Assembly: GCF_032062105.1 (NCBI RefSeq)
Contig: NW_026923709.1
Location: 124,001 to 188,000, forward strand
DNA: 64,000 nt
Source: Saccostrea cucullata
Lineage: Eukaryota
Reading direction: 5' to 3'
Part shown: one piece after another, positions 15,425-63,900 of the stretch
Numbering within the stretch: the stretch's first letter is position 1
Layout: the number at the start of each line of letters is the position of its first letter
Notes under the pieces: model-generated
What the model was told of the DNA's origin: nothing
Database searches by the model: none
The model's input: the letters and a program-made list of their open reading frames with translations, nothing else
Position numbers and translations under genes: made by a program

Positions 15425-15783
15425 GAGAGATATCTCTCTAGCATAGAGAGATATCTCTTTGGCTTATGGAGATATCTCTTAAGCTTATAGAGATATCTCT
15501 TTGACTAATAGAGATATCTTTAAAATTTAGAGAGATATCTCTTTCATTAAAAGAGATATCTCTTTAAACAAAAGAGATATCTCTTTTCGAAAGAGAGATA
15601 TCTTCATAAGCTAGAGAGATATCTCTTTAAGCGAGAGAGATATCTCTAAAAGTTAGAGAGATATCTCTTTTACAAGTTGAAAAGAGATATCTCTCTTAAT
15701 TAGAGAGATATCTCTTTAGATTTTCAAAAAGAGATATCTTTCTAAGCTAAAGACATATCTCTTTTAATGAAAGAGATATCTCT
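15425..15783. repeat. Left subterminal array: ~17 palindromic AGAGATATCTCT motifs at ~21-bp period
   Basis: Direct reading; 12-bp palindrome separated by variable ~9-bp spacers. Confidence 0.95.
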
Positions 15784-16334
15784 TTTCCAATCACCCTGAA
15801 AATAAAATAATTAATTCTCCCGTTAAAAACGAAAGCGAAACAGGAAGTAATGTCTGTTAAGTCGTTCGTTTTCTGATTATTAAAAAGAAGAGGATAAAGT
15901 TGACTGATTGATACAGGTAAACAACGTTAATTGCTTTTAATTATTGTTTTCAGCGGAAGTAATAGAATTTCAAACCAAAACGTTCCCCAAAGATTGGTAC
16001 CATATTATATTTATTTCATTTATTTAGCTCACAGGACAGCTGAGGTGGGGATATAGAATGCAAAGTCAATAACAACAAATCGGAAATACATGTACCCCAT
16101 ATTTCATCGATCACGGGAATACAGGGTTGATTACTACGTCGATTAAACATAATCCTGATAGAATTAATGTTCTTTTTTAATTAATTAATAATCCAAAAAT
16201 AAAAACGTCCAACATTACTTCTTTCATGTACACGGGGATGTATATATTCAATTTCAATATTAACTGTAGGACGTTAAACAACATACATGTACGATCAATA
16301 TACTAACTGTAAAGCCTTATGACCCCCTTCCCAA

Positions 16335-24240: not shown

Positions 24241-24719
24241 GAGAGATATCTCTTTGCAATAAAGAGATATCTCTTTTTGCTTCAGAGATATCTCTTTTCG
24301 ACCCTTTTGAAAGATATCTCTTTCACTTTCAGAGATATCTTTTAAGATAAACTTAGAGAGATATCTCTTTTACTTTAAGAGATATCTCTTTAACTTGGAA
24401 AGATATCTCTCTAAGTGAAAGAGATATCTCTCTAGGTGAAAGAGATATCTCTCTAGTTGAAAGAGATATCTCTTTAACGATCAGAGATATCTCTTTAACG
24501 TTCAGAGATATCTCTTATCACGAAAGAGATATCTCTCAAGGGCAAAGAGATATCTCTCAAAGAAAAAGAGATATCTCTCTCAGTAAAAGAGATATCTCTC
24601 TAACTTTAAGAGATATCTCTTTCTTATAGAGATATCTCTTAAGAATAAGAGATATCTCTTAAATTTGAGAGATATCTCTATTTTTTAAGAGATATCTCTC
24701 TAAAATGAGAGATATCTCT
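24241..24719. repeat. Right subterminal array: ~23 palindromic AGAGATATCTCT motifs at ~21-bp period
   Basis: Direct reading; counterpart of the 15425-15783 array. Confidence 0.95.
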
Positions 24720-24815
24720 GTAATTTTAAAATAAAATTTATTTTCCGAATAAATAGTAAAAGGGCTTAATTGCCATATATATGTTAAGAGTAAAGACACA
24801 TTTCAACCTTTCAGG

Positions 24816-42936: not shown

Positions 42937-45900
42937 ATGGGTTCGAATAAAAAACAACTTAAAGAAGTTAATAAACAAAAGAAAGGAAAAGGAAAAAGAT
43001 GGAAGAAAGGCCAAAGCAGCAGTAGTAACCCCGAAACTAAAACATTTAGGGAGGCTGCCAAAAACAGATTTTTCCAAACATCGTCATCGAAAGGTTGTTA
43101 GCTCATACGTTTTTTTTTTGTTTTTTTTTGTTTTTTTTTTTACATTAATTTGATTCCTTTTTAGATTGCTTTTAATTTTTTTTCTTACCCGAGGAATAGA
43201 AAGCGTTATTTTCTGCCTCTCGGTCTGATCTTACATGTATTTATTAAAATTTATAAGTTTGCTACACAGGTACTTAGGTCTTCGTTAGTAAATACCTTAT
43301 TTGTTATGATTTGGTTAAGCTGATATTGTTATCCGGAATTATATAATCTTTTGTTGGTTCTGTGTTTTGTAATACTGTAACAGTTGCGTAATGATACAAT
43401 AAAATAGTTCCAAAATGGCATCCTTCTGTGGAGCACATGTGTTTTGACTGTGCACGAACCCATTGTCTAAAAAGACATAACATTGGCGACGAGGATCGTT
43501 CAGGATGGCAAAATTCGCAGCCATTGGTCGTATCGACATCTTCGACAACAATGTCGAAACCTGGAACTCGTACAGTGAGCGCCTTGACCAGTATTTTGTG
43601 TGCAATGACGTCAAGGAGGAAAAGAAAGTTCCCGCATTGCTAAGCCTCATAGGGGGTAAGACTTACCAGTTATTGAGAGGTTTGACAGCACCGACTAAAC
43701 CGGCAGACGTGGAATATGCCGCACTCGTGAAAATCCTTGGTGATCACTTGAACCCCCCTCCTGTAGTAATCTCCGAGAGATTTCGGTTTTACAAAAGGGA
43801 CCAGCGGGAAGGTGAGTCTATTAGAGACTATATAGCGGATCTTAGAAGATTGTCAGAACATTGTGCATTTAAAGACAGTCTGAACGAATCGCTGCGTGAC
43901 AGATTAGTTTGTGGCCTTCGGAGCGAGGCAATTCAGAATAAACTCTTAGCAGAAAAAGACTTGACATTAGAGAAGGCGACGCAGATAGCACAGGCTATGG
44001 AGACCGCATTCAAGGATGCAACCGAGCTGCAGTCCAAACACGTTGGAATGGTAAACAAGCTAGGGGTGAGACAGAAAAAGGGATATCACTCTGCTGGAAC
44101 TGGAGTAAGGTCGCCACAACCCAACATGCCTAAGGTGAAACGAGGTACGAATTCAAAGAAATGTTTCCGTTGTAACAGTACAGCTCATGATCAAAGTCAG
44201 TGTTATTACAAAGACAAACAGTGCTATAATTGTTCAAAAATTGGACATTGTAAAAAGGCATGTAGGAAAACAAAGGAGGTACACAATGTGGACTGGAGTG
44301 AGAATCTCATTGGATCATTAGATGTGAATTCAGTTGAAAAGACTCATTCTGGAGCAATCGTAGTCAACACAAACATTGACGGTGTAGATGTTGATATGGA
44401 ACTCGACACGGGCGCAGCAGTCTCCGTGATGTCAAAGAAAAAGTTCTGTGAGTATTTTCCAGGAAGGATTAAGAACTTACCTGAATCAAATATGTGTTTA
44501 AAGACATATACTGGTGAAATCTTGAAGCCTTGTGGAGTGGCACGTGTAAATGTGAGTCACAACAACCAGAAAAAGGATCTAGACTTGTACGTGATGCAGA
44601 AGGCAGGACCAACGCTCTTCGGAAGAGAGTGGCTTCAGCAGATTTCACTCGATTGGCCGTCCATCAAGTCCATGTCGTGTGTGACAGACAAGATTTCAGA
44701 CACTTGTTCTGATAATGTGAAAGCGGACTTAAAACACATGTTGGAAAAACATCGTTCAGTTTTCCAGAGTGACATAGGTACGGTTAAGGGTATTGAAGCT
44801 ACACTCAACTTAAAGCCGGACGCTAAACCAAAGTTCTGTAAAGCCCGCTCAGTACCGTATGCTCTCAAGCCTAAGGTCGAGGCTGAACTGGACAAACTAG
44901 TCAGAGATGGTATCATAACCAAGGTGGACTACAGCGAATGGGCAACGCCTATTGTCCCTGTCATCAAGTCTGATAAAAATGTGCGCATATGTGGTGATTT
45001 CAAGGTGACACTGAACCCTGTTCTTGAAATCGATCAGTATCCGCTGCCCCGCATTGAAGACATTTTTGCAGCACTCGCAGGTGGTAAGCGATTCACCAAG
45101 TTAGATTTACGACATGCATATCTACAAATGAGAGTAAATGAGGAGTCGCGCAACTTATTGACAATAAATACAGAGAAAGGACTCTACCGCTACAACCGTT
45201 TAGTTTATGGTGTGGCCTCAGCTCCTGCAATCTGGCAAAGGACCATCGACACAGTCTTACAGGGTCTCACAGGCGTCAAATGTATCATTGATGATATGAT
45301 AATAACGGGCTCATCTGAGGAAGAACACCTGAAGAATTTGGAAGCTGTATTAACGCGCCTGGATGAATACAACTTGCGTGTGAACTTGAATAAGTGTGAA
45401 TTCTTCAGAGAACGTGTTTCTTATTGTGGACATGAAATAGACTGTGAGGGTCTGCACAAAACGCAATCCAAGATTGAAGCAGTTGTCAGTGCGCCGAAGC
45501 CGAAGAATGTTTCAGAGTTGCGATCATTTCTGGGCATTGTTAACTATTATGCCAGATTTTTGCCTAACCTTTCAAGTCTTTTGTACCCGCTACACCAGTT
45601 ACTGTCAAAGAGCCGAAAGTGGTCCTGGTCTAGCGAATGTGACAAGGCATTTTCTGAAGTCAAACAGCTTATTACCTCTGATGAGATTTTGACTCATTAC
45701 GACCCACAGCGAGAGGTGCGATTAGCATGTGATGCTTCACCTTATGGTTTAGGGTGTGTATTATCCCATGTCATGGATGACGGATCAGAACGACCGATAG
45801 CATATGCATCTCGATCATTGTCGTCAGCAGAGCGGAACTATTCACAGATAGATCGTGAGGCTCTGGGGATAGTATGGGGTGTGAAACGTTTTCATACATA

Positions 45901-48900
45901 CCTCTATGGAAGACACTTCACTTTATTGACGGATCATCGCCCTCTTGTGTCCATCTTCAGCCCCAGCAAAGGTGTATCAGTCACCACAGCAGCACGCATG
46001 CAGAGATATGCTCTGTTTTTATCAGGGTATGATTATGACATTATGTACAAAAACACCAAAGCGCATGGAAATGCAGATAGCTTATCGAGGCTACCACTGT
46101 CTGACTGTGAATCTGATGATGATTATCAAGATATTGACTTGATGTACCTACCACAATTTGAAACATTACCAATCACCAGTGACCGTATTAGACAGGAAAC
46201 TGGACGTGATCCTGTCACTGTGAAGGTATATGGTTATACCATGAATGGATGGAGCTTTTCGGTCAAAGCAGATGATAAGGACTTGTATCCCTACTTTACG
46301 CGTAAGGACGAGTTAACAATTCACAATGGATGTTTGTTGTGGGGAATGAGAGTTGTTGTTCCAACAAAGCTTAGGGATCACATACTTAAGGAGCTTCATT
46401 TAGGTCACATTGGAGTAGTGAAGATGAAGGCATTAGCTCGAAGTGTGGTATGGTGGCCCGGGATCGATCTTGATATAGAGAGGATCACGAAAGCATGCTC
46501 AGGATGTCAGGAGTTCAAGCGTGCACCTCCAGCAGCCCCCATTCATCCGTGGGAGTGGCCCACTAAACCTTGGGAACGTATCCATATAGACTTCGCTGGG
46601 CCTTTTATGAACTGGATGTTCCTGGTAGCAGTAGATGCACATTCTAAATGGCCTGAGGTCATAATGATGCGCGAGACGACATCCCACAAGACTATTGAGG
46701 TCTTGAGAAGTATCTTTGCTAGAAATGGTGTTCCTACAGTGTTGGTCAGTGATAACGGACCTCAGTTTATGTCAGACGAGTTTGGAAACTTCATTCGTAC
46801 CAATGGAATAAAGCATGTGACTTCTGCTCCATATCATCCTAGCTCAAATGGATTAGCGGAACGTTTTGTACAATCATTCAAGTCCGCAATGAAGTCAAGC
46901 AAGAAAGATGGAGGTTCTGTGGAAACGAAGTTATCTAACTTTTTACTAGCCTATCGCAACGCAGCACATTCAACTACTGGAGAGTCACCCGCAAAGCTAT
47001 TCATTGGTCGTTCATTGCAGTCACGACTAGATTTGATAAAACCAGACATTGAACAAAATGTTAAAAACAAACAGTTTCACATCGCATCTAAGAGATCAAG
47101 TTCATTGCGTGTGTTTGAACCTGGGCACAGTATAATTGTTAGGGACTACCGTCACAGTTCAAAGTCGGACTGGGTACCAGGAACCGTTCAAGAGCAGACA
47201 GGACCTGTTTCTTACAGAGTGCAAGTTGGGGACAATACTTGGAGAAGACACGTAGATCAGATATATGATTCTTCACTAAAGAATCAGGGAGTTGTACCCA
47301 GTGATCTTGAGAAGTTTGTGCCACAGGTACATGTACCAACTCCTACAGTTAGTGCTAAGCAGTCTAGTCCAGAAGTCTTTCCGCAAGGTACGAAAGTCAG
47401 GCAGTCAACTCCAGAGGTCTTCAACAGGAAGAAAGCTAATAGTCCTATCCAGGAACAGAAATCTCAGCCAGAAGTTAGGACCGAGCCTACCATACTAGCC
47501 AGACAAAATCCAAGACGAAATGTTGGACCGCCCAAACGTTTCAGTGACTATGTTACTTTCAAATGAATTGTGCATTTTGTTTTGTGTATTATGGCACAGT
47601 ATTGGGGCACAATAATCCCCGTGCCTTTGTGTTGACCAAGAGGTCATTTTCACTTTGTATACTGTATTGTGTTGAATGTATTGGCCTGGTAAAACATGTC
47701 TGTGAAGTTTAATATTTGAAATGTGTATATTGCCCAAAATTTCATTCAATTTAAGTTCTGATTTTAATTCTTGTGGAAGTCAAAATTTAGTGGGGAGGAA
47801 TGTTATGATTTGGTTAAGCTGATATTGTTATCCGGAATTATATAATCTTTTGTTGGTTCTGTGTTTTGTAATACTGTAACAGTTGCGTAATGATACAATA
47901 AAATAGTTCCAAAATGGCATCCTTCTGTGGAGCACATGTGTTTTGACTGTGCACGAACCCATTGTCTAAAAAGACATAACATTATTGATCAATGTTCACT
48001 TTTACCTTTTTTTATCATATCAATAAGGTACATAAATATTTATAAACCAAGACTCATGTGCATGTGGGTTGCCCCTGCCCGATTAAAACATTTTATTGGC
48101 AGTACAATAGTTGGGGCGAGCACAGTTTTGTATAATAGAATTACTGTAAACCAACTTTTATTCGTGTGTGAGAAATTTTCACGAGGTTCGCGAGAGCCTT
48201 GTCATGGAGAATATTTCTCACCGCGAACCGGTCCTTAAATTCCCTGTTGCTATGAACAACAACCTCAAAAAAGGCTTGATCGCGAAAATTTATCGTCGCA
48301 AACTACTTTTTAAGGAGTAAATCGCGAAATAAAGTTGTCACGAATAAAAGTTGGTTTACCGTATTCTACGTTATTTGTAAGGTTACGGATGGGTTCGCTC
48401 TGATAAGGTGTTCATGCTGAGTTGTATCTCGCTGAGTGGTTTCGCCCCATTTAACTACAGGGTATACAATGTCATGTAAATGTTCTTCTATTAAGTGATA
48501 ATTTATATTACACACATGATGTATGCAACAGTAATTAGATAATTGAATAACATTTTATATCTGATATAGAGTGAGTTTTTTTTATAAATTGAAAAGACAT
48601 GTGAAAGGTCTAGACTGTGATGGTGTTTTAGTTCCATAATTCAGTTTGAAATGTGCCATTTTTACACTAATTTTCTACATGGGACATACCGTATAATGGG
48701 TATTTTTTACGTGCTGCTAATTTTTACAAGTTTTATAAATCCGTAAAATTTAAACGTGTAAAATTTCACATGATTTATAAAACGACTCGTGTAAAATTTC
48801 AACATCATTTGTGTAAAAATAATGCTAATTACCATTAAGCTCACTCCCTGGAGGCTAAATGATTAGTGTAGTGTTGATATTTTGAGCACTTTTAAGTCAA

Positions 48901-51900
48901 TCATCAATTGGGATCATATAGGTAAATCTCAATTAACTTGTATGAATTATACAAACATCGTATATTAATTAATCAATTAAACCCACCTGGTCACTTTTTT
49001 TTTAGTATTTTTACGAGAAACTAACTTCCGACAATGCCTTTATGATTACAGGTCTTCCAATTATACCCGTGTTTTCAATCTTTGACCCTTTCTTCTGTTT
49101 CATGTTCTTTGAATAAAACTTTGACTTCCTAATAGACTGTCATACTTGTACTTCAATTATGATAGTTTGAGTTGTCTCTCTTTGTATTCGGTAAAAATGG
49201 TGTGCCTAGCTTTGTGTTTTATAGAATTTGAATTTATAAATGAAGGGCACCTTGTTCGTGTACATAAAGGTAAATGATAAAAACATTATACAATGTGTAA
49301 TTTGTTGCATTGTTTATATTGTTAAAATTTAATAAATCTCTCTCTCTTGCCTCTCTCTCTTGCATCGGACACATTATATTTACTGTCAGAAACGCATTCA
49401 AAGTGCTGACAATCACTGATCTGGAATTTTACATCTGATGATTTTAATTTTTAAGGACATGAAAATGATGTTCAATTTGTAAAATATTAACGCGTAAAAA
49501 TTTAAATCACCCTCTTTTGACCAAAATTCGTAAAAATTTACAGCAGTAAAAATAACCCGTTATACGGTATACACAGTATTACACTGTATGTTCTAAAAAC
49601 CTGATATACTGTAGATCTAGCCATGACCTGATGAAAAAATGTCCTTTAAAATTAATTTATCTCCATGTATCTGCACAATCCTTTATCTGACATTTTTATT
49701 TCAAAGTTTTTCATTTGTAAACTTTGGTTCATTGACATATCATGCATTATATGTATGTTGTTTATGGAGGAATATCAATGACTATTGGTAATGAGTTTAC
49801 TACATTTTGCATGCCAATCAAATTTTTATTTAAGCTGATTATTATAATAGTCTGATAGTAATTATGCACATCTAAATGCAGGCTTATGTTTTACACAAAG
49901 ACAATTTTGTCTATTTTTTTTAAATTCTTTTGAAACAGGAGAAAGTAGTCTTACTGTTGATGCTTTGGCTAAACATAATGAAGAACAGTTAGATAAAGAT
50001 GGTGATGTTAGTCTACGAGCGGAGTCAGATGTTGTCAGCGCTGCCGGAAAGACGTTTAATACCTGGGCGACAAACTGGACAGAGTGTACCAACACAACAT
50101 TTAGTCGAGTACATAGGTACTGGGCATCAAATTCGGCTTTTCATAAAGAGGTAAGTGAAATTATTTTAGAGGATGTTTTCATCATTTGTTTAAGTAAGCA
50201 ACACAAGTGTTCACAAATTTTGGAGGGGAAAATCTTTTTATTTCGAAATCTGAGTGTGGTTTACAATTACATGTAGCTGGTAATTGTGCAGTTGAGGATT
50301 CTGATTCAAATACTGGAGATTCCTTATTTTTTGAGAGCTTAAATTTTCATGAAATGTCTCTTTCACATTTAGTGGGGGTACAATAATTAATAATGATAGT
50401 AGACAGTTTATCGCGAGATTTTACTTTGATTTCAGCACCGAGAAAATAAAAGCGAGTAATTTTATTTTGCGAGAGGTGCTTGTCACTCATGATCATAAGG
50501 CATTCTTTTTGTAGGTGTTAGCTGTGTTAGCGGCAGTTACAGAGGTGATAAAAACCCAGGGAGGCTCTGAATCAGAAACAGAATACTTCGCTGCTTTGGT
50601 GGGTGTTTTACTTCAGCTTTCTGATTCATGATTATCATGTATAAAGTACATTTATCTTAAATTGTTAAAAAAAGACCCAGAAAATGATGTATAATGATTA
50701 ATGAAATATCTCTTTAGAAGACTTTGTCTGTTTTTTTTTTGTCATACTAAACAAGTTTTACATGTACTTTATAATGTAAGAACAGTATCAGATAATTATT
50801 TGAACAGATGACAGCACTGGAGACAACAGAGGGAGAAGACTCTGTATCAGCCGTGGCCTACCTCCTCAGCTTAGTCATGAAGAGGTCAGTCACCTTGTAC
50901 ACATATATAACTGTATAATTAGTAATTTTAGTGAGATGCAAATTTGATTGTTTTATGGAAATACTTCTAGAATCAATGATGTAAATGCTGTGAAAATTAT
51001 CCACATTGCTAAACCTGTAACATGATATTAAGTCTCCTCCAAAGAGAAAATTTGTTTGGAGCATATGTCCTAAAATGTTAATAGATATTTTTTGCATGAG
51101 AACTGTTTCTTATTATTTACAGAGTTCCTGCCCCAGTCCTAAAGAGAAGGTTTTCAGAAATTTCCAAAGAATTTCTGGATGTCCTTGTGAAGTACAGCGA
51201 GGGGCATTCTCCTGCTCTCCTCAAGTCTGTAAGTACTTAGATTTCCATCAGTGTTACACCGTACGCTCTACAGAAAACCAGTCTCTTAAATGCTTTGTTA
51301 CTGCCGCAGCTATTATTTGCAAATAAGTCTGACACTTTGAAATCCATCCAAGTCTTGACATTTTTCAGACTGATGCACAATTTTTAATAAAAAATTTTGA
51401 CCAGAAATATGTTTAAAAAGAGAAGGTCACAAAACCTGTGGATTTTTCATTGAGTTAATATTTGATTTGCAGGTGCTTGATATTGTTCGTAAATTTTTAA
51501 CTACTGTTAATTTCTTTTAAAATTTTTAATTTGTAGTTGTTGCTGTGTCTGGCGTTGCTGCTTAGAGTTCAGGACCAGGCTACTTGGAGTAACTCCTCCA
51601 CACAGCGAGTGTATCAAAGTATGCTGGCCTTCACAGTCAACAAAAAGCCTAAGGTATCATCTGTATCATATTACTGACAACAAAAAACCCAATGTATAAT
51701 CATAGACAACAAAAAAACCCAAGGTATAATCATAGACAACAAAAAACCAAAATTAGATATTATCACTGACAACAAAAAAAAAAAAAAACAAAGGTATTTT
51801 TACTGACAACAAAAACCCAAGGTATCACTGACAGCAAAAAAAAAAAACCAAGGCACTATTACAATGAACAAAAAACCCAAGGTATTATCACTGACAACAA

Positions 51901-54900
51901 AAACCCACAACTTTATCACCGACAACAAAAAAAACCCCCAAGATTTTATCACTGACAGCAAAAAAAAACCCAAAGGTATTTTCACAATCAACCAAACACG
52001 TAAGGTTTTATCACTCACAACAAAAAAAAAAATTAAGGTAGTACTATCATAGTCAACAAAAAACCAGGGATATATCGTATCACTTACAGAATATTAAATT
52101 TATATGTGTATACACATGTATATATATTCATTGTTTTGAAAGTTCAGAATGCAGAATCATGTATCTGACAGTCATCATTCTGATAATAATCTGTTTGGTA
52201 TTTCTTTTGGCAGGTGAGAAAGGCAGCACAACAAGGGGTGAATATTGTCCTGAGGGGTAGTGTCTTTATGAACCCACCAGAGACGGCCCCTCCCCACCAC
52301 CCCGCCAGCTCCCTGACCGCCAAGTTCTGTATCCAGGTCATCGAGCAAAGCGGAGGTTAGAGCTACTGTGAACTCAGTTATTTTCGTGGGGGTTTCATTT
52401 TTGTGGTTTTTTAAGGTATGAAGGGACCCAAGAATTCATGTCCACCATGAAATGTACTTTTTTTTAAGATATCATTCCTCAACAATTCTTCATCCTCGAA
52501 ATTAAATCCCCATGAACCCACATTTCTTCCTCAAACCGCGAAAATTTGATCCCACGAAAATATGCGATTTTACAGTAAACACTGAGTGCAAAATTCATTC
52601 TTGATTAATTTTTCTTAACATATTTAAAAAGGACTATTCTTTTACCTTTTGTTTGAATGTGTAAAATTCTTGTTTAATTGTAAATGACAAGTATTTTTAT
52701 ACACATTTGGTGGGAAAAAAATCCAGAAAAAATAACATCTGTAAATTGATAGTATTAAGATCTACAAAAAACAAAGGAAAGCTTGTGACCAACTCCTTGA
52801 GGTTAAAATTGTGAAAGATTCTCACATGTGGATACTAAAAGGTATTCAATAGGGTCTGTAACTAAGGTATATTTCAGTATTAAGATCTATTTAAAAAAAA
52901 AAAACAATGCATCAAAGTTTTTTTCTTTTTTCTACAGGTTCTACAGAGTCTTCAGACACACTATACATTCTAACCTTATTGAAGGACATCATGTGTACAT
53001 TCTCTCAGAGTAGTCTGAAATCAGTGTGTGAGACCATACTGAGAGTGATGACACTAAGTAATGTGGTGAGTATACTGATAGAAATCAGTGTGTGAGACCG
53101 TACTGAGAGTGATGACACTGAGTAATGTGGTGAGTACTGATAGAAATCAGTGTGTGAGACTATACTGAGAGTGATGACAGTAATGTGGTGAGTACTGATA
53201 GAAATCAGTGTGTGAGACCATACTGAGAGTGATGACACTTAGTAATGTGGTGAGTACTGATAGAAATCAGTGTGTGAGACTATACTGAGAGTGATGACAC
53301 TTAGTAATGTGGTGAGTACTGATAGAAGTCAGTGTGTGAGACCATACTGAGAGTGATGACACTTAGTAATGTGGTGAGTACTGATAGAAATCAGTGTGTG
53401 AGACCATACTGAGAGTGATGACACTTAGTAATGTGGTGAGTACTGATAGAAATCAGTGTGTGAGACCATACTGAGAGTGATGACACTTAGTAATGTGGTG
53501 AGTATACTGATAGAAATCAGTGTGTGAGACCATACTGAGAGTGATGACACTTAGTAATGTGGTGAGTACTGATAGAAATCAGTGTGTGAGACCATACTGA
53601 GAGTGATGACACTTAGTAATGTGGTGAGTACTGATAGAAATCAGTGTGTGAGACCATACTGAGAGTGATGACACTGAGTAATGTGGTGAGTATACTGATA
53701 GAAATCAGTGTGTGAGACTATACTGAGAGTGATGACAGTAATGTGGTGAGTACTGATAGAAATCAGTGTGTGAGACCGTACTGAGAGTGATGACACTAAG
53801 TAATGTGGTAAGTATACTGATAGAAATCAGTGTGTGAGACCATGAGACCGTACTGAGAGTGATGACACTTAGTAATGTGGTGAGTACTGATAGAAGTCAG
53901 TGTGTGAGACCATACTGAGAGTGATGACACTTAGTAATGTGGTGAGTACTGATAGAAATCAGTGTGTGAGACCATACTGAGAGTGATGACACTTAGTAAT
54001 GTGGTGAGTACTGATAGAAATCAGTGTGTGAGACCATACTGAGAGTGATGACACTTAGTAATGTGGTGAGTATACTGATAGAAATCAGTGTGTGAGACCA
54101 TACTGAGAGTGATGACACTTAGTAATGTGGTGAGTACTGATAGAAATCAGTGTGTGAGACCATACTGAGAGTGATGACACTTAGTAATGTGGTGAGTACT
54201 GATAGAAATCAGTGTGTGAGACCATACTGAGAGTGATGACACTTAGTAATGTGGTGAGTATACTGATAGAAATCAGTGTGTGAGACCATACTGAGAGTGA
54301 TGACACTTAGTAATGTGGTGAGTATACTGATAGAAATCAGTGTGTGAGACCATACTGAGAGTGATGACACTTAGTAATGTGGTGAGTACTGATAGAAATC
54401 AGTGTGTGAGACCATACTGAGAGTGATGACACTTAGTAATGTGGTGAGTACTGATAGAAATCAGTGTGTGAGACCATACTGAGAGTGATGACACTTAGTA
54501 ATGTGGTGAGTATACTGATAGAAATCAGTGTGTGAGACCGTACTGAGAGTGATGACACTTAGTAATGTGGTGAGTACTGATAGAAATCAGTGTGTGAGAC
54601 CATACTGAGAGTGATGACACTTAGTAATGTGGTGAGTACTGATAGAAATCAGTGTGTGAGACCATACTGAGAGTGATGACACTGAGTAATGTGGTGAGTA
54701 TACTGATAGAAATCAGTGTGTGAGACCGTACTGAGAGTGATGACACTGTAGTAAGTGTGGTGAGAGTGATACAGTGTGTGAGAGTAATGACACTTAGTAA
54801 TGTGGTGATACTGATAGAAATCAGTGTGTGAGACCATACTGAGAGTGATGACACTTAGTAATGTGGTGAGTACTGATAGAAATCAGTGTGTGAGACCATA

Positions 54901-57900
54901 CTGAGAGTGATGACACTTAGTAATGTGGTGAGTACTGATAGAAATCAGTGTGTGAGACCATACTGAGAGTGATGACACTTAGTAATGTGGTGAGTATACT
55001 GATAGAAATCAGTGTGTGAGACCGTACTGAGAGTGATGACACTTAGTAATGTGGTGAGTACTGATAGAAATCAGTGTGTGAGACCGTACTGAGAGTGATG
55101 ACACTTAGTAATGTGGTGAGTACTGATAGAAATCAGTGTGTGAGACCATACTGAGAGTGATGACACTTAGTAATGTGGTGAGTACTGATAGAAATCAGTG
55201 TGTGAGACCATACTGAGAGTGATGACACTTAGTACTGTGGTGAGTACTGATAGAAGTCAGTGTGTGTGTCTACTGATAGAAGTCAGTGTGTGAGACCGTA
55301 CTGAGAGTGATGACACTTAGTAATGTGGTGAGTACTGATAGAAATCAGTGTGTGAGACCATACTGAGAGTGATGACACTTAGTAATGTGGTGAGTACTGA
55401 TAGAAGTCAGTGTGTGAGACCGTACTGAGAGTGATGACACTTAGTAATGTGGTGAGTATACTGATAGAAATCAGTGTGTGAGACCATACTGAGAGTGATG
55501 ACACTTAGTAATGTGGTGAGTACTGATAGAAATCAGTGTGTGAGACCGTACTGAGAGTGATGACACTTAGTAATGTGGTGAGTACTGATAGAAATCAGTG
55601 TGTGAGACCGTACTGAGAGTGATGACACTTAGTAATGTGGTGAGTACTGATAGAAATCAGTGTGTGAGACCATACTGAGAGTGATGACACTTAGTAATGT
55701 GGTGAGTACTGATAGAAATCAGTGTGTGAGACCATACTGAGAGTGATGACACTTAGTAATGTGGTGAGTACTGATAGAAATCAGTGTGTGAGACCGTACT
55801 GAGAGTGATGACACTTAGTAATGTGGTGAGTACTGATAGAAATCAGTGTGTGAGACCGTACTGAGAGTGATGACACTTAGTAATGTGGTGAGTACTGATA
55901 GAAATCAGTGTGTGTGTGAGTACTGATAGAAATCAGTGTGTACTGAGAGTGATGACACTTAGTAATGTGGTGAGTACTGATAGAAATCAGTGTGTGAGAC
56001 CATACTGAGAGTGATGACACTTAGTAATGTGGTGAGTACTGATAGAAATCAGTGTGTGAGACCATACTGAGAGTGATGACACTTAGTAATGTGGTGAGTA
56101 CTGATAGAAATCAGTGTGTGAGACCATACTGAGAGTGATGACACTTAGTAATGTGGTGAGTACTGATAGAAATCAGTGTGTACTGAGAGTGATGACACTT
56201 AGTAATGTGTTGTGTACTGATAGTACTGAGTGTGAGAGACCATACTGAGAGTGATGACACTTAGTAATGTGGTGAGTACTGATAGAAATCAGTGTGTGAG
56301 ACCGTACTGAGAGTGATGACACTTAGTAATGTGGTGAGTACTGATAGAAATCTGTGTGTGAGACCGTACTGAGAGTGATGACACTTAGTAATGTGGTGAG
56401 TATACTGATAGAAATCAGTGTGTGAGACCATACTGAGAGTGATGACACTTAGTAATGTGGTGAGTATACTGATAGAAATCAGTGTGTGAGACCATACTGA
56501 GAGTGATGACACTTAGTAATGTGGTGAGTAGTGATAGAAATCAGTGTGTGAGACCATACTGAGAGTGATGACACTCAGTAATGTGGTGAGTACTGATAGA
56601 AATCAGTGTGTGTGAGAGTGATGACACTTAGTAATGTGGTGAGTACTGATAGAAGTCAGTGTGTGAGACCATACTGAGAGTGATGACACTTAGTAATGTG
56701 GTGGGTACTGATAGAAATCAGTGTGTGAGACCGTACTGAGAGTGATGACACTCAGTAATGTGGTGAGTACTGATAGAAATCAGTGTGTGAGACCATACTG
56801 AGAGTGATGACACTTAGTAATGTGGTGAGTACTGATAGAAATCAGTGTGTGAGACCATACTGAGAGTGATGACACTTAGTAATGTGGTGAGTACTGATAG
56901 AAATCAGTGTGTGAGACCATACTGAGAGTGATGACACTTAGTAATGTGGTGAGTATACTGATAGAAATCAGTGTGTGAGACGGTACTGAGAGTGATGACA
57001 CTTAGTAATGTGGTGAGTACTGATAGAAATCAGTGTGTGAGACCATACTGAGAGTGATGACACTTAGTAATGTGGTGAGTATACTGATAGAAATCAGTGT
57101 GTGAGACCGTACTGAGAGTGATGACACTTAGTAATGTGGTGAGTACTGATAGAAATCAGTGTGTGAGTGTGTAATCAGTGTGTGAGAGTGATGTAGTAAT
57201 GTGGTGAGTACTGATAGAAATCAGTGTGTGAGACCGTACTGAGAGTGATGACACTTAGTAATGTGGTGAGTACTGATAGAAATCAGTGTGTGAGACCATA
57301 CTGAGAGTGATGACACTTAGTAATGTGGTGAGTATACTGATAGAAATCAGTGTGTGAGACCATACTGAGAGTGATGACACTTAGTAATGTGGTGAGTACT
57401 GATAGAAATCAGTGTGTGAGACCATACTGAGAGTGATGACACTTAGTAATGTGGTGAGTATACTGATAGAAATCAGTGTGTGAGACCATACTGAGAGTGA
57501 TGACACTGAGTAATGTGGTGAGTATACTGATAGAAATCAGTGTGTGACCATACTGAGAGTGATGACACTTAGTAATGTGGTGAGTACTGATAGAAATCAG
57601 TGTGTGAGACCATACTGAGAGTGATGACACTTAGTAATGTGGTGAGTACTGATAGAAATCAGTGTGTGAGACCATACTGAGAGTGATGACACTTAGTAAT
57701 GTGGTGAGTACTGATAGAAATCAGTGTGTGAGACCATACTGAGAGTGATGACACTTAGTAATGTGGTGAGTATACTGATAGAAATCAGTGTGTGAGACCA
57801 TACTGAGAGTGATGACACTTAGTAATGTGGTGAGTACTGATAGAAATCAGTGTGTGAGACCATACTGAGAGTGATGACACTTAGTAATGTGGTGAGTACT

Positions 57901-60900
57901 GATAGAAATCAGTGTGTGAGACCATACTGAGAGTGATGACACTTAGTAATGTGGTGAGTACTGATAGAAATCAGTGTGTGAGACCATACTGAGAGTGATG
58001 ACACTTAGTAATGTGGTGAGTACTGATAGAAATCAGTGTGTGAGACCATACTGAGAGTGATGACACTTAGTAATGTGGTGAGTACTGATAGAAATCAGTG
58101 TGTGAGACCATACTGAGAGTGAGTGTGTGACACTTAGTAATGTGGTGAGTATACTGATAGAAATCAGTGTGTGAGACCGTACTGAGAGTGATGACACTTA
58201 GTAATGTGGTGAGTACTGATAGAAATCAGTGTGTGAGACCATACTGAGAGTGATGACACTTAGTAATGTGGTGAATGATGAAATCACTGAGAGTGATGTG
58301 ATGTGGTGAGTATACTGAGAGTGATGACACTTGATAAATCAGTGTGTGAGACCATACTGAGAGTGATGACACTTAGTAATGTGGTGAGTAAACTGATAGA
58401 AATCAGTGTGTGAGACAGTAGTGAGAGATATGACACTTAGTAATGTGGTGAGTGTACTGATAGAAATCAGTGTGTGAGACCATACTGAGAGTGATGACAC
58501 TTAGTAATGTGGTGATAGAAGAAATCAGTGTGTGAGACCGTACTGAGAGTGATGACACTTAGTAATGTGGTGAGTACTGATAGAAATCAGTGTGTGAGAC
58601 CGTACTGAGAGTGATGACACTTAGTAATGTGGTGAGTACTGATAGAAATCAGTGTGTGTGTGATGACACTTAGTAATGTGGTGAGTACTGATAGAAATCA
58701 GTGTGTGAGACCGTACTGAGAGTGATGACACTTAGTAATGTGGTGAGTACTGATAGAAATCAGTGTGTGAGACCGTACTGAGAGTGATGACACTTAGTAA
58801 TGTGGTGAGTACTGATAGAAATCAGTGTGTGAGACCATACTGAGAGTGATGACACTTAGTAATGTGGTGAGTATACTGATAGAAATCGTACTGAGAGTGT
58901 GTGTGAGTACTGATAGAAATCAGTGTGTGAGACCATACTGAGAGTGATGACACTAGTAATGTGGTAGTACTGATAGAAATCAGTGTGTGAGACCATACTG
59001 AGAGTGATGACACTTAGTAATGTGGTAAGTACTGATAGAAATCAGTGTGTGAGACCATACTGAGAGTGATGACACTTAGTAATGTGGTGAGTACTGATAG
59101 AAATCAGTGTGTGAGACCGTACTGAGAGTGATGACACTTAGTAATGTGGTGAGTACTGATAGAAATCAGTGTGTGAGACCATACTGAGAGTGATGACACT
59201 TAGTAATGTGGTGAGTACTGATAGAAATCAGTGTGTGAGACCATACTGAGAGTGATGACACTTAGTAATGTGGTGAGTATACTGATAGAAATCAGTGTGT
59301 GAGACCATACTGAGAGTGATGACACTTAGTAATGTGGTGAGTACTGATAGAAATCAGTGTGTGAGACCATACTGAGAGTGATGACACTTAGTAATGTGGT
59401 GAGACCATACTACTGATAGAAATCAGTGTGTGAGACCATACTGAGAGTGATGACACTTAGTAATGTGGTGAGTACTGATAGAAATCAGTGTGTGAGACCA
59501 TACTGAGAGTGATGACACTGAGTAATGTGGTGAGTACTGATAGAAATCAGTGTGTGAGACCGTACTGAGAGTGATGACACTTAGTAATGTGGTGAGTACT
59601 GATAGAAATCAGTGTGTGATACCATACTGAGAGTGATGACACTTAGTAATGTGGTGAGTACTGATAGAAATCAGTGTGTGAGACCGTACTGAGAGTGATG
59701 ACACTTAGTAATGTGGTGAGTACTGATAGAAATCAGTGTGTGAGACCGTACTGAGAGTGATGACAGTAATGTGGTGAGTACTGATAGAAATCAGTGTGTG
59801 AGACCATACTGAGAGTGATGACACTTAGTAATGTGGTGAGTAGTGATAGAAATCAGTGTGTGAGACCGTACTGAGAGTGATGACACTTAGTAATGTGGTG
59901 AGTACTGATAGAAATCAGTGTGTGAGACCGTACTGAGAGTGATGACACTTAGTAATGTGGTGAGTACTGATAGAAATCAGTGTGTGAGACCATACTGAGA
60001 GTGATGACACTTAGTAATGTGGTGAGTACTGAGAGAAATCAGTGTGTGAGACCATACTGAGAGTGATGACACTTAGTAATGTGGTGAGTACTGATAGAAA
60101 TCAGTGTGTGAGACCATACTGAGAGTGATGACACTTAGTAATGTGGTGAGTACTGATAGAAATCAGTGTGTGAGACCATACTGAGAGTGATGACACTTAG
60201 TATTGTGGTGAGTACTGATTGAAATCAGTGTGTGAGACCATACTGAGAGTGATGACACTTAGTAATGTGGTGAGTATACTGATAGAAATCAGTGTGTGAG
60301 ACCATACTGAGAGTGATGACACTTAGTAATGTGGTGAGTACTGATAGAAATCAGTGTGTGAGACCATACTGAGAGTGATGACACTTAGTAATGTGGTGAG
60401 TACTGATAGAAATCAGTGTGTGAGACCGTACTGAGAGTGATGACACTTAGTAATGTGGTGAGTATACTGATAGAAATCAGTGTGTGAGACCATACTGAGA
60501 GTGATGACACTTAGTAATGTGGTGAGTACTGATAGAAATCAGTGTGTGAGACCATACTGAGAGTGATGACACTTAGTAATGTGGTGAGTACTGATAGAAA
60601 TCAGTGTGTGAGACCATACTGAGAGTGATGACACTTAGTAATGTGGTGAGTACTGATAGAAATCAGTGTGTGAGACCATACTGAGAGTGATGACACTTAG
60701 TAATGTGGTGAGTACTGATAGAAATCAGTGTGTGAGACCATACTGAGAGTGATGACACTTAGTAATGTGGTGAGTACTGATAGAAATCAGTGTGTGAGAC
60801 CATACTGAGAGTGATGACACTTAGTAATGTGGTGAGTACTGATAGAAATCAGTGTGTGAGACCGTACTGAGAGTGATGACACTTAGTATGTGGTGAGTAC

Positions 60901-63900
60901 TGATAGAAATCAGTGTGTGAGACCGTACTGAGAGTGATGACACTTAGTAATGTGGTGAGTACTGATAGAAATCAGTGTGTGAGACCATACTGAGAGTGAT
61001 GACACTTAGTAATGTGGTGAGTATACTGATAGAAATCAGTGTGTGAGACCGTACTGAGAGTGATGACACTTAGTAATGTGGTGAGTACTGATAGAAATCA
61101 GTGTGTGAGACCATACTGAGAGTGATGACACTTAGTAATGTGGTGAGTACTGATAGAAGTCAGTGTGTGAGACCGTACTGAGAGTGATGACACTTAGTAA
61201 TGTGGTGAGTACTGATAGAAATCAGTGTGTGAGACCATACTGAGAGTGATGACACTTAGTAATGTGGTGAGTACTGATAGAAATCAGTGTGTGAGACCAT
61301 ACTGAGAGTGATGACACTTAGTAATGTGGTGAGTACTGATAGAAGTCAGTGTGTGAGACCGTACTGAGAGTGATGTACTGAGAGTGATGAACTTAGTAAT
61401 GTGGTGAGTACTGATAGAAATCAGTGTGTGAGACCGTACTGAGAGTGATGACACTTAGTAATGTGGTGAGTACTGATAGAAATCAGTGTGTGAGACCATA
61501 CTGAGAGTGATGACACTTAGTAATGTGGTGAGTACTGATAGAAATCAGTGTGTGAGACCGTACTGAGAGTGATGACACTTAGTAATGTGGTGAGTACTGA
61601 TAGAAATCAGTGTGTGAGACCATACTGAGAGTGATGACACTTAGTAATGTGGTGAGTACTGATAGAAATCAGTGTGTGAGACCATACTGAGAGTGATGAC
61701 ACTTAGTAATGTGGTGAGTACTGATAGAAATCAGTGTGTGAGACCATACTGAGAGTGATGACACTTAGTAATGTGGTGAGTACTGATAGAAATCAGTGTG
61801 TGAGACCATACTGAGAGTGATGACACTTAGTAATGTGGTGAGTACTGATAGAAATCAGTGTGTGAGACCATACTGAGAGTGATGACACTTAGTAATGTGG
61901 TGAGTATACTGATATAAATCAGTGTGTGAGACCGTACTGAGAGTGATGACACTTAGTAATGTGGTGAGTACTGATAGAAATCAGTGTGTGAGACCGTACT
62001 GAGAGTGATGACACTTAGTAATGTGGTAAGTACTGATAGAAATCAGTGTGTGAGACCATACTGAGAGTGATGACACTTAGTAATGTGGTGAGTACTGATA
62101 GAAATCAGTGTGTGAGACCATACTGAGAGTGATGACACTTAGTAATGTGGTGAGTACTGATAGAAATCAGTGTGTGAGACCGTACTGAGAGTGATGACAC
62201 TTAGTAATGTGGTGAGTACTGATAGAAATCAGTGTGTGAGACCGTACTGAGAGTGATGACACTTAGTAATGTGGTGAGTACTGATAGAAATCAGTGTGTG
62301 AGACCGTACTGAGAGTGATGACACTTAGTAATGTGGTGAGTACTGATAGAAATCAGTGTGTGAGACCATACTGAGAGTGATGACTTAGTAATGTGGAAGT
62401 ATCAGTGTGTGAGACCATACTGAGAGTGATGACACTTAGTAATGTGGTGAGTATACTGATAGAAATCAGTGTGTGAGACCGTACTGAGAGTGATGACACT
62501 TAGTAATGTGGTGAGTATACTGATAGAAATCAGTGTGTGAGACCGTACTGAGAGTGATGACACTGAGTAACGTGGTGAGTACTGATAGAAATCAGTGTGT
62601 GAGACCGTACTGAGAGTGATGACACTTAGTAATGTGGTGAGTATACTGATAGAAATCAGTGTGTGAGACCGTACTGAGAGTGATGACACTTAGTAATGTG
62701 GTGAGTACTGATAGAAATCATAGAAATCAGTGTGTGAGACCGTACTGAGAGTGATGACACTTAGTAATGTGGTGAGTACCAATAAAACACAGAGTTTGAT
62801 AATATAATTGGTAATGTGGTTAATACCAATACAAATACAGAGTTTGAGACTATCCTTAGTAATATGGTGAATGCCAATACCAATGTAAAATATTTGTGTA
62901 TTGACAATTATTTTTTTTTGCAGATGGTGACATCTTGTGGAATGAAGGCTTTATATAGCCTCTTTAATGGAAATCCCAGGGTTACTACTCTGAATGCAGA
63001 ACTGAATGCACAAATGATCAAAGTAGGTTTAGAAACCCATGTACATGTTTTATAACCACGCAATACATTGATGTACGGTCCATAAGGCCGTCAATCAGCT
63101 GTCAATTATGTCTGTATTTGTATTTTGTAGGCTTTGTATGAATACCAACCTTCAAATAATGATGTACAACCAATGAAGGCGTGGCTAGCAGTAATGGAGG
63201 CAGCACATAAAAATCTGACAAGGTAAACAGTCATTAGTGTTCCCATGAGACAAATCAGGTTTAAGGCCTAAAGAAAATAAATAACTTGATTCTCAGGCCA
63301 GTTTTGTCACGAACAAATAGGGGAAGCAGGTTTTTTTCTTTATACTTCATAAACACAGGCACCAGCTTTTAGATTTTTTTTATAATTTCAAAAATTATAA
63401 ATTTTTGTAAATGCTTCAATATTGAGTGTAGAAATGGGAATAAAAAGGTATTTACAGTATTACAGAAAAAAAAAATTCTTTTTGGTCGCTGATTATTTTG
63501 TGGTGAATTTCAGACTGGATGAGAAGCTCTGTCTTGGACACCTCCCCCGTTTCTTCTCGGTGTGTATGATGTGTCTTCTGTCTGAGAAAGCCGAGGTCAA
63601 CTCTAGTGCCGCAAAAACCATGAAGGTCTGTATATCTGATCTGTCTATTGTAGTACTCTATACAGGGTTATTCTTGCCCCCATGTTATTTTCGCCCTTTC
63701 ACACTTGTAAACAAATTTGCCCCATTTTGAATTTGTTTTAGAATTATAATACTGTATTCTTTGAATTCGTCCTGTTTTTAATTCCCCCAAATAAGGGTTG
63801 GGAGGAGAAGGGGCAAAATAAAATGGAGGTGAAAATTGGATAGTTTGCATCCCGGGAAGAATGATCAAGAAATCAAATAAACTAATTTTCAGAGTTGTCG

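Follow-up and report, generated by a model that had tools for sequence, protein, structure and literature searches.

How does a 5' splice site come to stand at the head of a tandem array built from copies of its own exon end and donor, and are donors special in this respect? The question is raised by intron 6 of the RRP12 gene of the rock oyster Saccostrea cucullata, which lies in the 64,000-nucleotide stretch of DNA analyzed here (the window; contig NW_026923709.1, positions 124,001 to 188,000). An earlier note on this DNA had described the array, together with another behind exon 8, and had taken both as signs of a recurrent mechanism that seeds tandem repeats at 5' splice sites, with a selective filter as the alternative.

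The intron 6 array and its origin

RRP12 is a housekeeping gene that occupies positions 42937-64000 of the window and continues in a region beyond it (L006), with 11 introns visible in the window. The gene has 32 exons and a frame open over 1289 residues, 1208 of which are identical to a 1288-residue homolog (P0002) that was mapped onto the window plus the next 32 kb; for exon 2, the nearest named homologs are Saccostrea proteins (96-97%). Exon 6 (51537-51653, 117 nt) and intron 6 (51654-52213), both on the forward strand like the other features of the gene located below, were placed by homolog mapping and RNA joints. Exon 7 follows at 52214-52355, with RNA contigs joining exon 6 to it at the first donor.

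The founding unit of the array (51631-51670) straddles the exon 6/intron 6 junction, with 23 exon bases and 17 intron bases that include the authentic donor, AAG/GTATCAT, at 51654. Behind it, much as the earlier note had described, come 13 degenerate units of 25-37 nt each (51671-52078), the length of which differs mostly within a run of A; about half of them (7 of 13) contain AAGGT. These intronic units have a mean mutual identity of 69% and are 59-80% identical to the end of exon 6. A 36-nt probe from the exon 6 donor scored 33 against its own intron, the highest score among 930 cross-paired probe/intron controls being 28, that is, the unit matches the exon end with a probability below 1 of 930 controls. 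The last 23 nt of exon 6, which are the exonic share of the founding unit, code for the end of a conserved motif (...TVNKKPK), and of 19 homologs where the pattern was found, 11, of mollusc type, conserve this exon-end peptide, which indicates that the repeat came from the exon. The likely birth of the array would be a random short tandem duplication across the junction, followed by growth and turnover through unequal exchange or slippage. Growth would have proceeded into the intron only, since an expansion on the exon side would disrupt the protein.

The array is a locus-specific repeat, unique in the genome. A pattern search of 1.17 Gb with the 27-nt unit (up to 1 mismatch, gaps excluded) returned a single match, in intron 6 of a second RRP12 copy, and a DNA search, which skips common words, gave matches limited to the window contig and to the contig that carries this second copy (C23479). 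A unit consensus dispersed away from RRP12 would, according to the earlier note, have told against its reading; the unit was found only in intron 6 of both copies, and this confinement rules out a dispersed repeat, a transposon or a satellite as its origin. An assembly artefact is ruled out as well, since the other haplotype (see below) carries the same array with common tail units.

An in-frame TGA (51675-51677), located by translation, lies upstream of all the downstream donor copies, so that splicing from any copy would add a premature stop. Mis-spliced RNA with a premature stop is degraded by nonsense-mediated decay, and the position of the TGA before each copy makes this the expected fate of mis-spliced intron 6 RNA. 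Five downstream GT sites have matrix scores of 4.3-5.2, versus 4.1 for the authentic donor. All 4 of 4 runs, taken from 3 studies, show a sole joint across intron 6, which uses the first donor; they are contigs of a related oyster that leave the intron itself uncovered, and this relative may lack the array. No joint from a downstream donor copy appeared in the RNA contigs of these four runs, whose records are mostly 90-95% alike or less and in three runs only guessed to be RNA, and which as assembled contigs lose rare forms. The duplication was likely tolerated through the choice of the first donor by the splicing machinery.

Turnover in the second RRP12 copy

The second copy of the gene has exons 1-6 on contig C23479 and exons 9-32 on contig C3286. 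In exons 1-6, 40 of 753 bases distinguish the two copies (out of 251 codons, 35 are changed synonymously and 5 non-synonymously), introns 2-5 are 84-90% alike and exons 16-32 are almost identical. From this pattern we read the second copy as the other haplotype, the alternative being a local paralog. The divergence, 5.3% in exons 1-6, declines along the gene until it is near zero in exons 16-32. Another difference is the length of intron 1, 6845 nt in the window versus 2034 nt in the other haplotype; the window version holds an LTR retrotransposon (43302-47983) whose 183-nt LTRs are identical and which contains a single open frame of 1353 residues. The identity of the LTRs, together with the length gap between haplotypes, suggests that this insertion is likely very recent.

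The intron 6 array of C23479 has about 33 units versus 14 in the window, a 2.5-fold gap in copy number. Its last three units align with the last three of the window array, which places the origin of the array before the haplotype split. Within it lies an inner block of 29-nt units that is young and homogenised, 13 pattern-matched units being 91% alike; here TCA or ACA replaces the exon-side AAG while the GT is retained. If C23479 is taken as the other haplotype, the two arrays show length polymorphism and a concerted evolution that leaves the edges unhomogenised; the array is thus old yet still turning over. The earlier note had taken it for a decayed end state, and this part of its reading is contradicted by a young, re-expanded inner block joined to a shared old tail.

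If the donor copies were kept by selection, they could serve as back-up donors, as U1 sites protecting the transcript or as a switch from splicing to decay. The array has indeed persisted since a deep split between haplotypes, which differ synonymously in 35 of 251 codons, and five copies score as high as the real donor. However, AAG/GT is kept in just 7 of the 13 units, the expanded block of the other haplotype has lost the exon-side AAG to TCA or ACA, the copy number differs 2.5-fold between haplotypes and the RNA contigs contain no joint from any copy, all of which makes selection for the copies very improbable.

Intron 6 is one of three introns of RRP12 (6, 8 and 20) with a copy of the donor junction, found thus at 3 of 31 donors versus 0 of 31 acceptors. 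The exon 8 donor-junction array (53017-62884; about 157 units of 62 bp, 89% matches) is separate from the exon 6 array and has the same geometry, in agreement with the earlier note; it is younger and ends in a short degenerate tail. This array is also present in the other haplotype (L040 1-3837 of G000:C3286), where it is interrupted by the contig start, and it closes there with the 46-48 bp degenerate tail also present at window positions 62759-62884. In intron 20 (L006, about 3975-4258) both haplotypes repeat the exon 20 end with its donor once, over about 105 nt, which represents a two-copy stage of the structure seen at exon 6.

Donor junctions in a genome sample

The earlier note had proposed a comparison of donors, acceptors and random positions over all introns. 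We have made this comparison in a sample of 1.77 Mb (0.15% of the genome), non-random, drawn among the matches listed and covering five gene families. A first sample of 1.37 Mb was taken around kinase, myosin and SNF-transporter exons, and a second of 0.40 Mb around kinesin and P450 exons, the latter with model and thresholds fixed beforehand. Exons were predicted with a small model, the splice matrices of which were started from the RRP12 junctions; on RRP12 itself, a test not fully held out, 26 of its 27 calls overlap one of 30 exons, with 22 donors and 25 acceptors exact. Dispersed-flagged and low-complexity probes were excluded.

Junction-spanning first copies were found at 22 of 1087 donors in the first sample and at 7 of 295 in the second (pooled 29/1382, 2.10%), versus 7 of 1072 and 3 of 289 acceptors (pooled 10/1361, 0.73%). 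Intron probes gave about 1%: 65/7730 near donors (0.84%) and 227/20511 deeper (1.11%), and on the acceptor side 87/7616 near and 261/20544 deeper. Donors differ from acceptors (Fisher P 0.003) and from near (0.0001) and deep (0.003) intron probes, and a bootstrap over contigs in the first sample gave ratios of 1.6-8.1 for donor to acceptor and of 1.1-2.9 for donor to deep intron. Acceptors, at 0.73% versus a background of 1.1-1.3%, show no significant difference from it (Fisher P 0.1-0.2). Doubtful events are a donor match with 3 exon bases, a near whole-exon copy and an acceptor in a likely false exon. With a looser first control, which counted every local duplicate outside exons (2.3%) and took in dispersed repeats, low-complexity probes and matches not spanning the junction, the donor excess was absent. 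It emerged once one strict rule governed junctions and controls alike, so that its magnitude varies with the control chosen.

A dissection by copy number locates the excess. One extra copy was present at 7 of 1382 donors (0.51%) and at 153 of 28241 first-copy intron probes (0.54%, in a background range of 0.52-0.54%; odds 0.93), and for two or three extra copies the difference (0.58% versus a background of 0.32-0.33%) was not significant. With four or more extra copies, donors stood at 14/1382 (1.01%) versus 50/28241 intron probes (background range 0.18-0.28%), with P from 1e-6 to 8e-5 against background, and acceptors at 1/1361 (0.07%). This split carries a bias: at the degenerate edges of intron arrays, units match fewer copies, so that the long-array background is depressed and the single-copy one inflated; a test centred on arrays does not have that bias.

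For the latter, we considered arrays with a period of 15 or more and 3.5 or more copies, 71 of them in gene bodies, of which 55 were left after removing 15 dispersed and 1 exonic. Seventeen of the 55 start at most one unit before a donor (3.4 expected), and three end at most one unit after an acceptor (3.4 expected). The two sub-samples agree (10/38 donor-anchored versus 2.6 expected, and 7/17 versus 0.8), and the figures hold when look-alike contigs are excluded (15-16 of 44-52 versus 2.7-3.2) or dispersed arrays retained (15-17 of 56-67 versus 4.4-5.0). Donor-anchored arrays exceed expectation about 5-fold, with a 95% interval of about 2.6-8 and P 0.001-0.003 when set against 2-fold, and they form a sharp peak at the donor, with no broad rise. 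Left uncounted were five arrays that start 1-25 nt past a donor and by eye seem to derive from it, as well as one or two further arrays that look acceptor-derived. The GC content is 40% in donor-anchored arrays versus 34% in the others, and most exons anchoring the former read as recognisable family peptides. Further donor-anchored arrays, with 7 to >80 probe matches, are found in kinesin (L223, L224, L228, L236, L239, L240) and myosin (L134, L132, L177) regions, and the look-alike kinesin contigs L228 and L240 have an approximately 6-fold difference in copy number.

Since single duplications are at background and the excess is found in long arrays, donors look favoured in repeat expansion or persistence and not in seeding. 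The recurrent process postulated by the earlier note is thus borne out as to its recurrence, with 3 of 31 donors in RRP12, and as to the enrichment of donors over intron background in the sample, and lacks support as to strict seeding. A pure selective filter, by which random duplications would be neutral across donors and purged across acceptors and the donor excess would be a sampling artefact, accords with some of these data: the single-copy donor rate equals background, acceptors lie at or below it (not significantly), and the sample comprises 0.15% of the genome, five families and predicted exons. Such a filter accounts for donors exceeding acceptors but cannot raise donors above neutral intron sequence, and donor arrays do exceed the intron background under both alternative counts of contigs and arrays, most of the anchoring exons being recognisable as coding for family peptides. 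The filter offered by the earlier note as an alternative therefore seems improbable.

The intron 6 array is a minisatellite of the exon 6 end that, in our view, probably arose by ordinary duplication and was tolerated thanks to the first donor, donors being favoured in the growth or persistence of arrays. From the sample, donor-spanning duplications would be born at about the rate of intron duplications in general and would more readily become, or survive as, long arrays. Their advantage would most likely come from an exon copy held by selection, from the harmlessness of extra donors and from GC-richer units; acceptor-spanning duplications would have no excess, likely as their decoys precede the true site. 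This explanation has its difficulties. By reasoning, a constant exon copy predicts at most an approximately 2-fold excess, and passive causes may not suffice for one of about 5-fold. Rates also differ strongly among families (myosin 14/294, kinesin 6/188, kinase 8/544, P450 1/107, SNF 0/249), unlike what a uniform passive model would give.

An excess above 2-fold leaves room for a germline process coupled to transcription or splicing that actively seeds or expands repeats at 5' splice sites, through polymerase pausing, R-loops, breaks or crossovers. The array excess above the passive ceiling, the sharpness of the peak at the donor and the three affected donors within one housekeeping gene are consistent with it, as are the difference between myosin plus kinesin (20/482) and SNF plus P450 (1/356; P 0.0002, in a grouping that is partly post hoc) and the slightly greater strength of event donors compared to other donors (median 6.3 versus 5.1, P 0.026). 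Against it, single duplications are without excess, the planned contrast of kinesin and P450 alone is not significant (6/188 versus 1/107, P 0.43), nor is the link between exon CpG depletion and donor events (P 0.17-0.2), and we consider the coupled process possible but rather unlikely. Carried further, it leads to the tentative and quite doubtful proposal that, in oysters, more of the long locus-specific minisatellites come from 5' splice sites in broadly expressed genes than from any other single source, via such expansion of donor-containing repeats; if true, donor-born arrays would make up a third or more of those found in gene bodies.

Mirage minisatellites and related systems

By its sequence-level features, the intron 6 array is a 'mirage' (exon-intron boundary) minisatellite, a kind already described. 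Its unit spans an exon-intron boundary, the terminal unit holds the true splice site, the array is locus-specific and the splice signal is kept in many, not all, units. Mirages are known from amphioxus, in Adh3, the globins BflGb6 and BflGb9, troponin C and PGBD5; they are described as single loci, at both boundary types and with a mechanism called unclear, somatic length instability being reported for Adh3 (PMC3087553, PMC3902484), and their origin is called unclear as well (PMC3087553). The present case differs in coming from a bivalve instead of a cephalochordate and in being accompanied by a counted sample with an excess at donors and none at acceptors. In a literature search that reached few subscription journals, we found neither a bivalve mirage nor a genome-scale count of mirages.

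The 37-bp VNTR in intron 7 of human F7 offers a functional parallel. It has 5-9 identical copies, shown to be functional by mutation, and experiments showed that the most upstream of the identical donors alone is used (PMC1557585). As in F7, the first unit of RRP12 spans the exon/intron junction, and the silence of the downstream donors in F7 may have its counterpart in the first-donor joints of the relative's contigs. Unlike the F7 copies, those of RRP12 are 69% alike, half of them without AAG/GT, and five of their GT sites are putative donors by score. The raw material is also that of the Rogers model, in which, as cited in another work, introns are gained by duplicating sequence that contains a splice site (PMC3087553). 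In contrast to what that account describes, RRP12 gains no intron or exon, the 32-exon gene keeping its open frame of 1289 residues.

As a single locus the array is ordinary; the useful part is the count, in which long arrays showed a donor excess that was replicated. The confinement of this excess to long arrays turns into a testable question whether splicing signals shape the sites at which minisatellites grow, and donor-anchored arrays would provide an invertebrate setting in which the choice of the first donor is put to the test naturally, hundreds of times over. Repeats of another sort are also present in the window, where two arrays (15425-15786 and 24242-24744) have a 21-bp unit with a palindromic core and are possibly transposon-borne.
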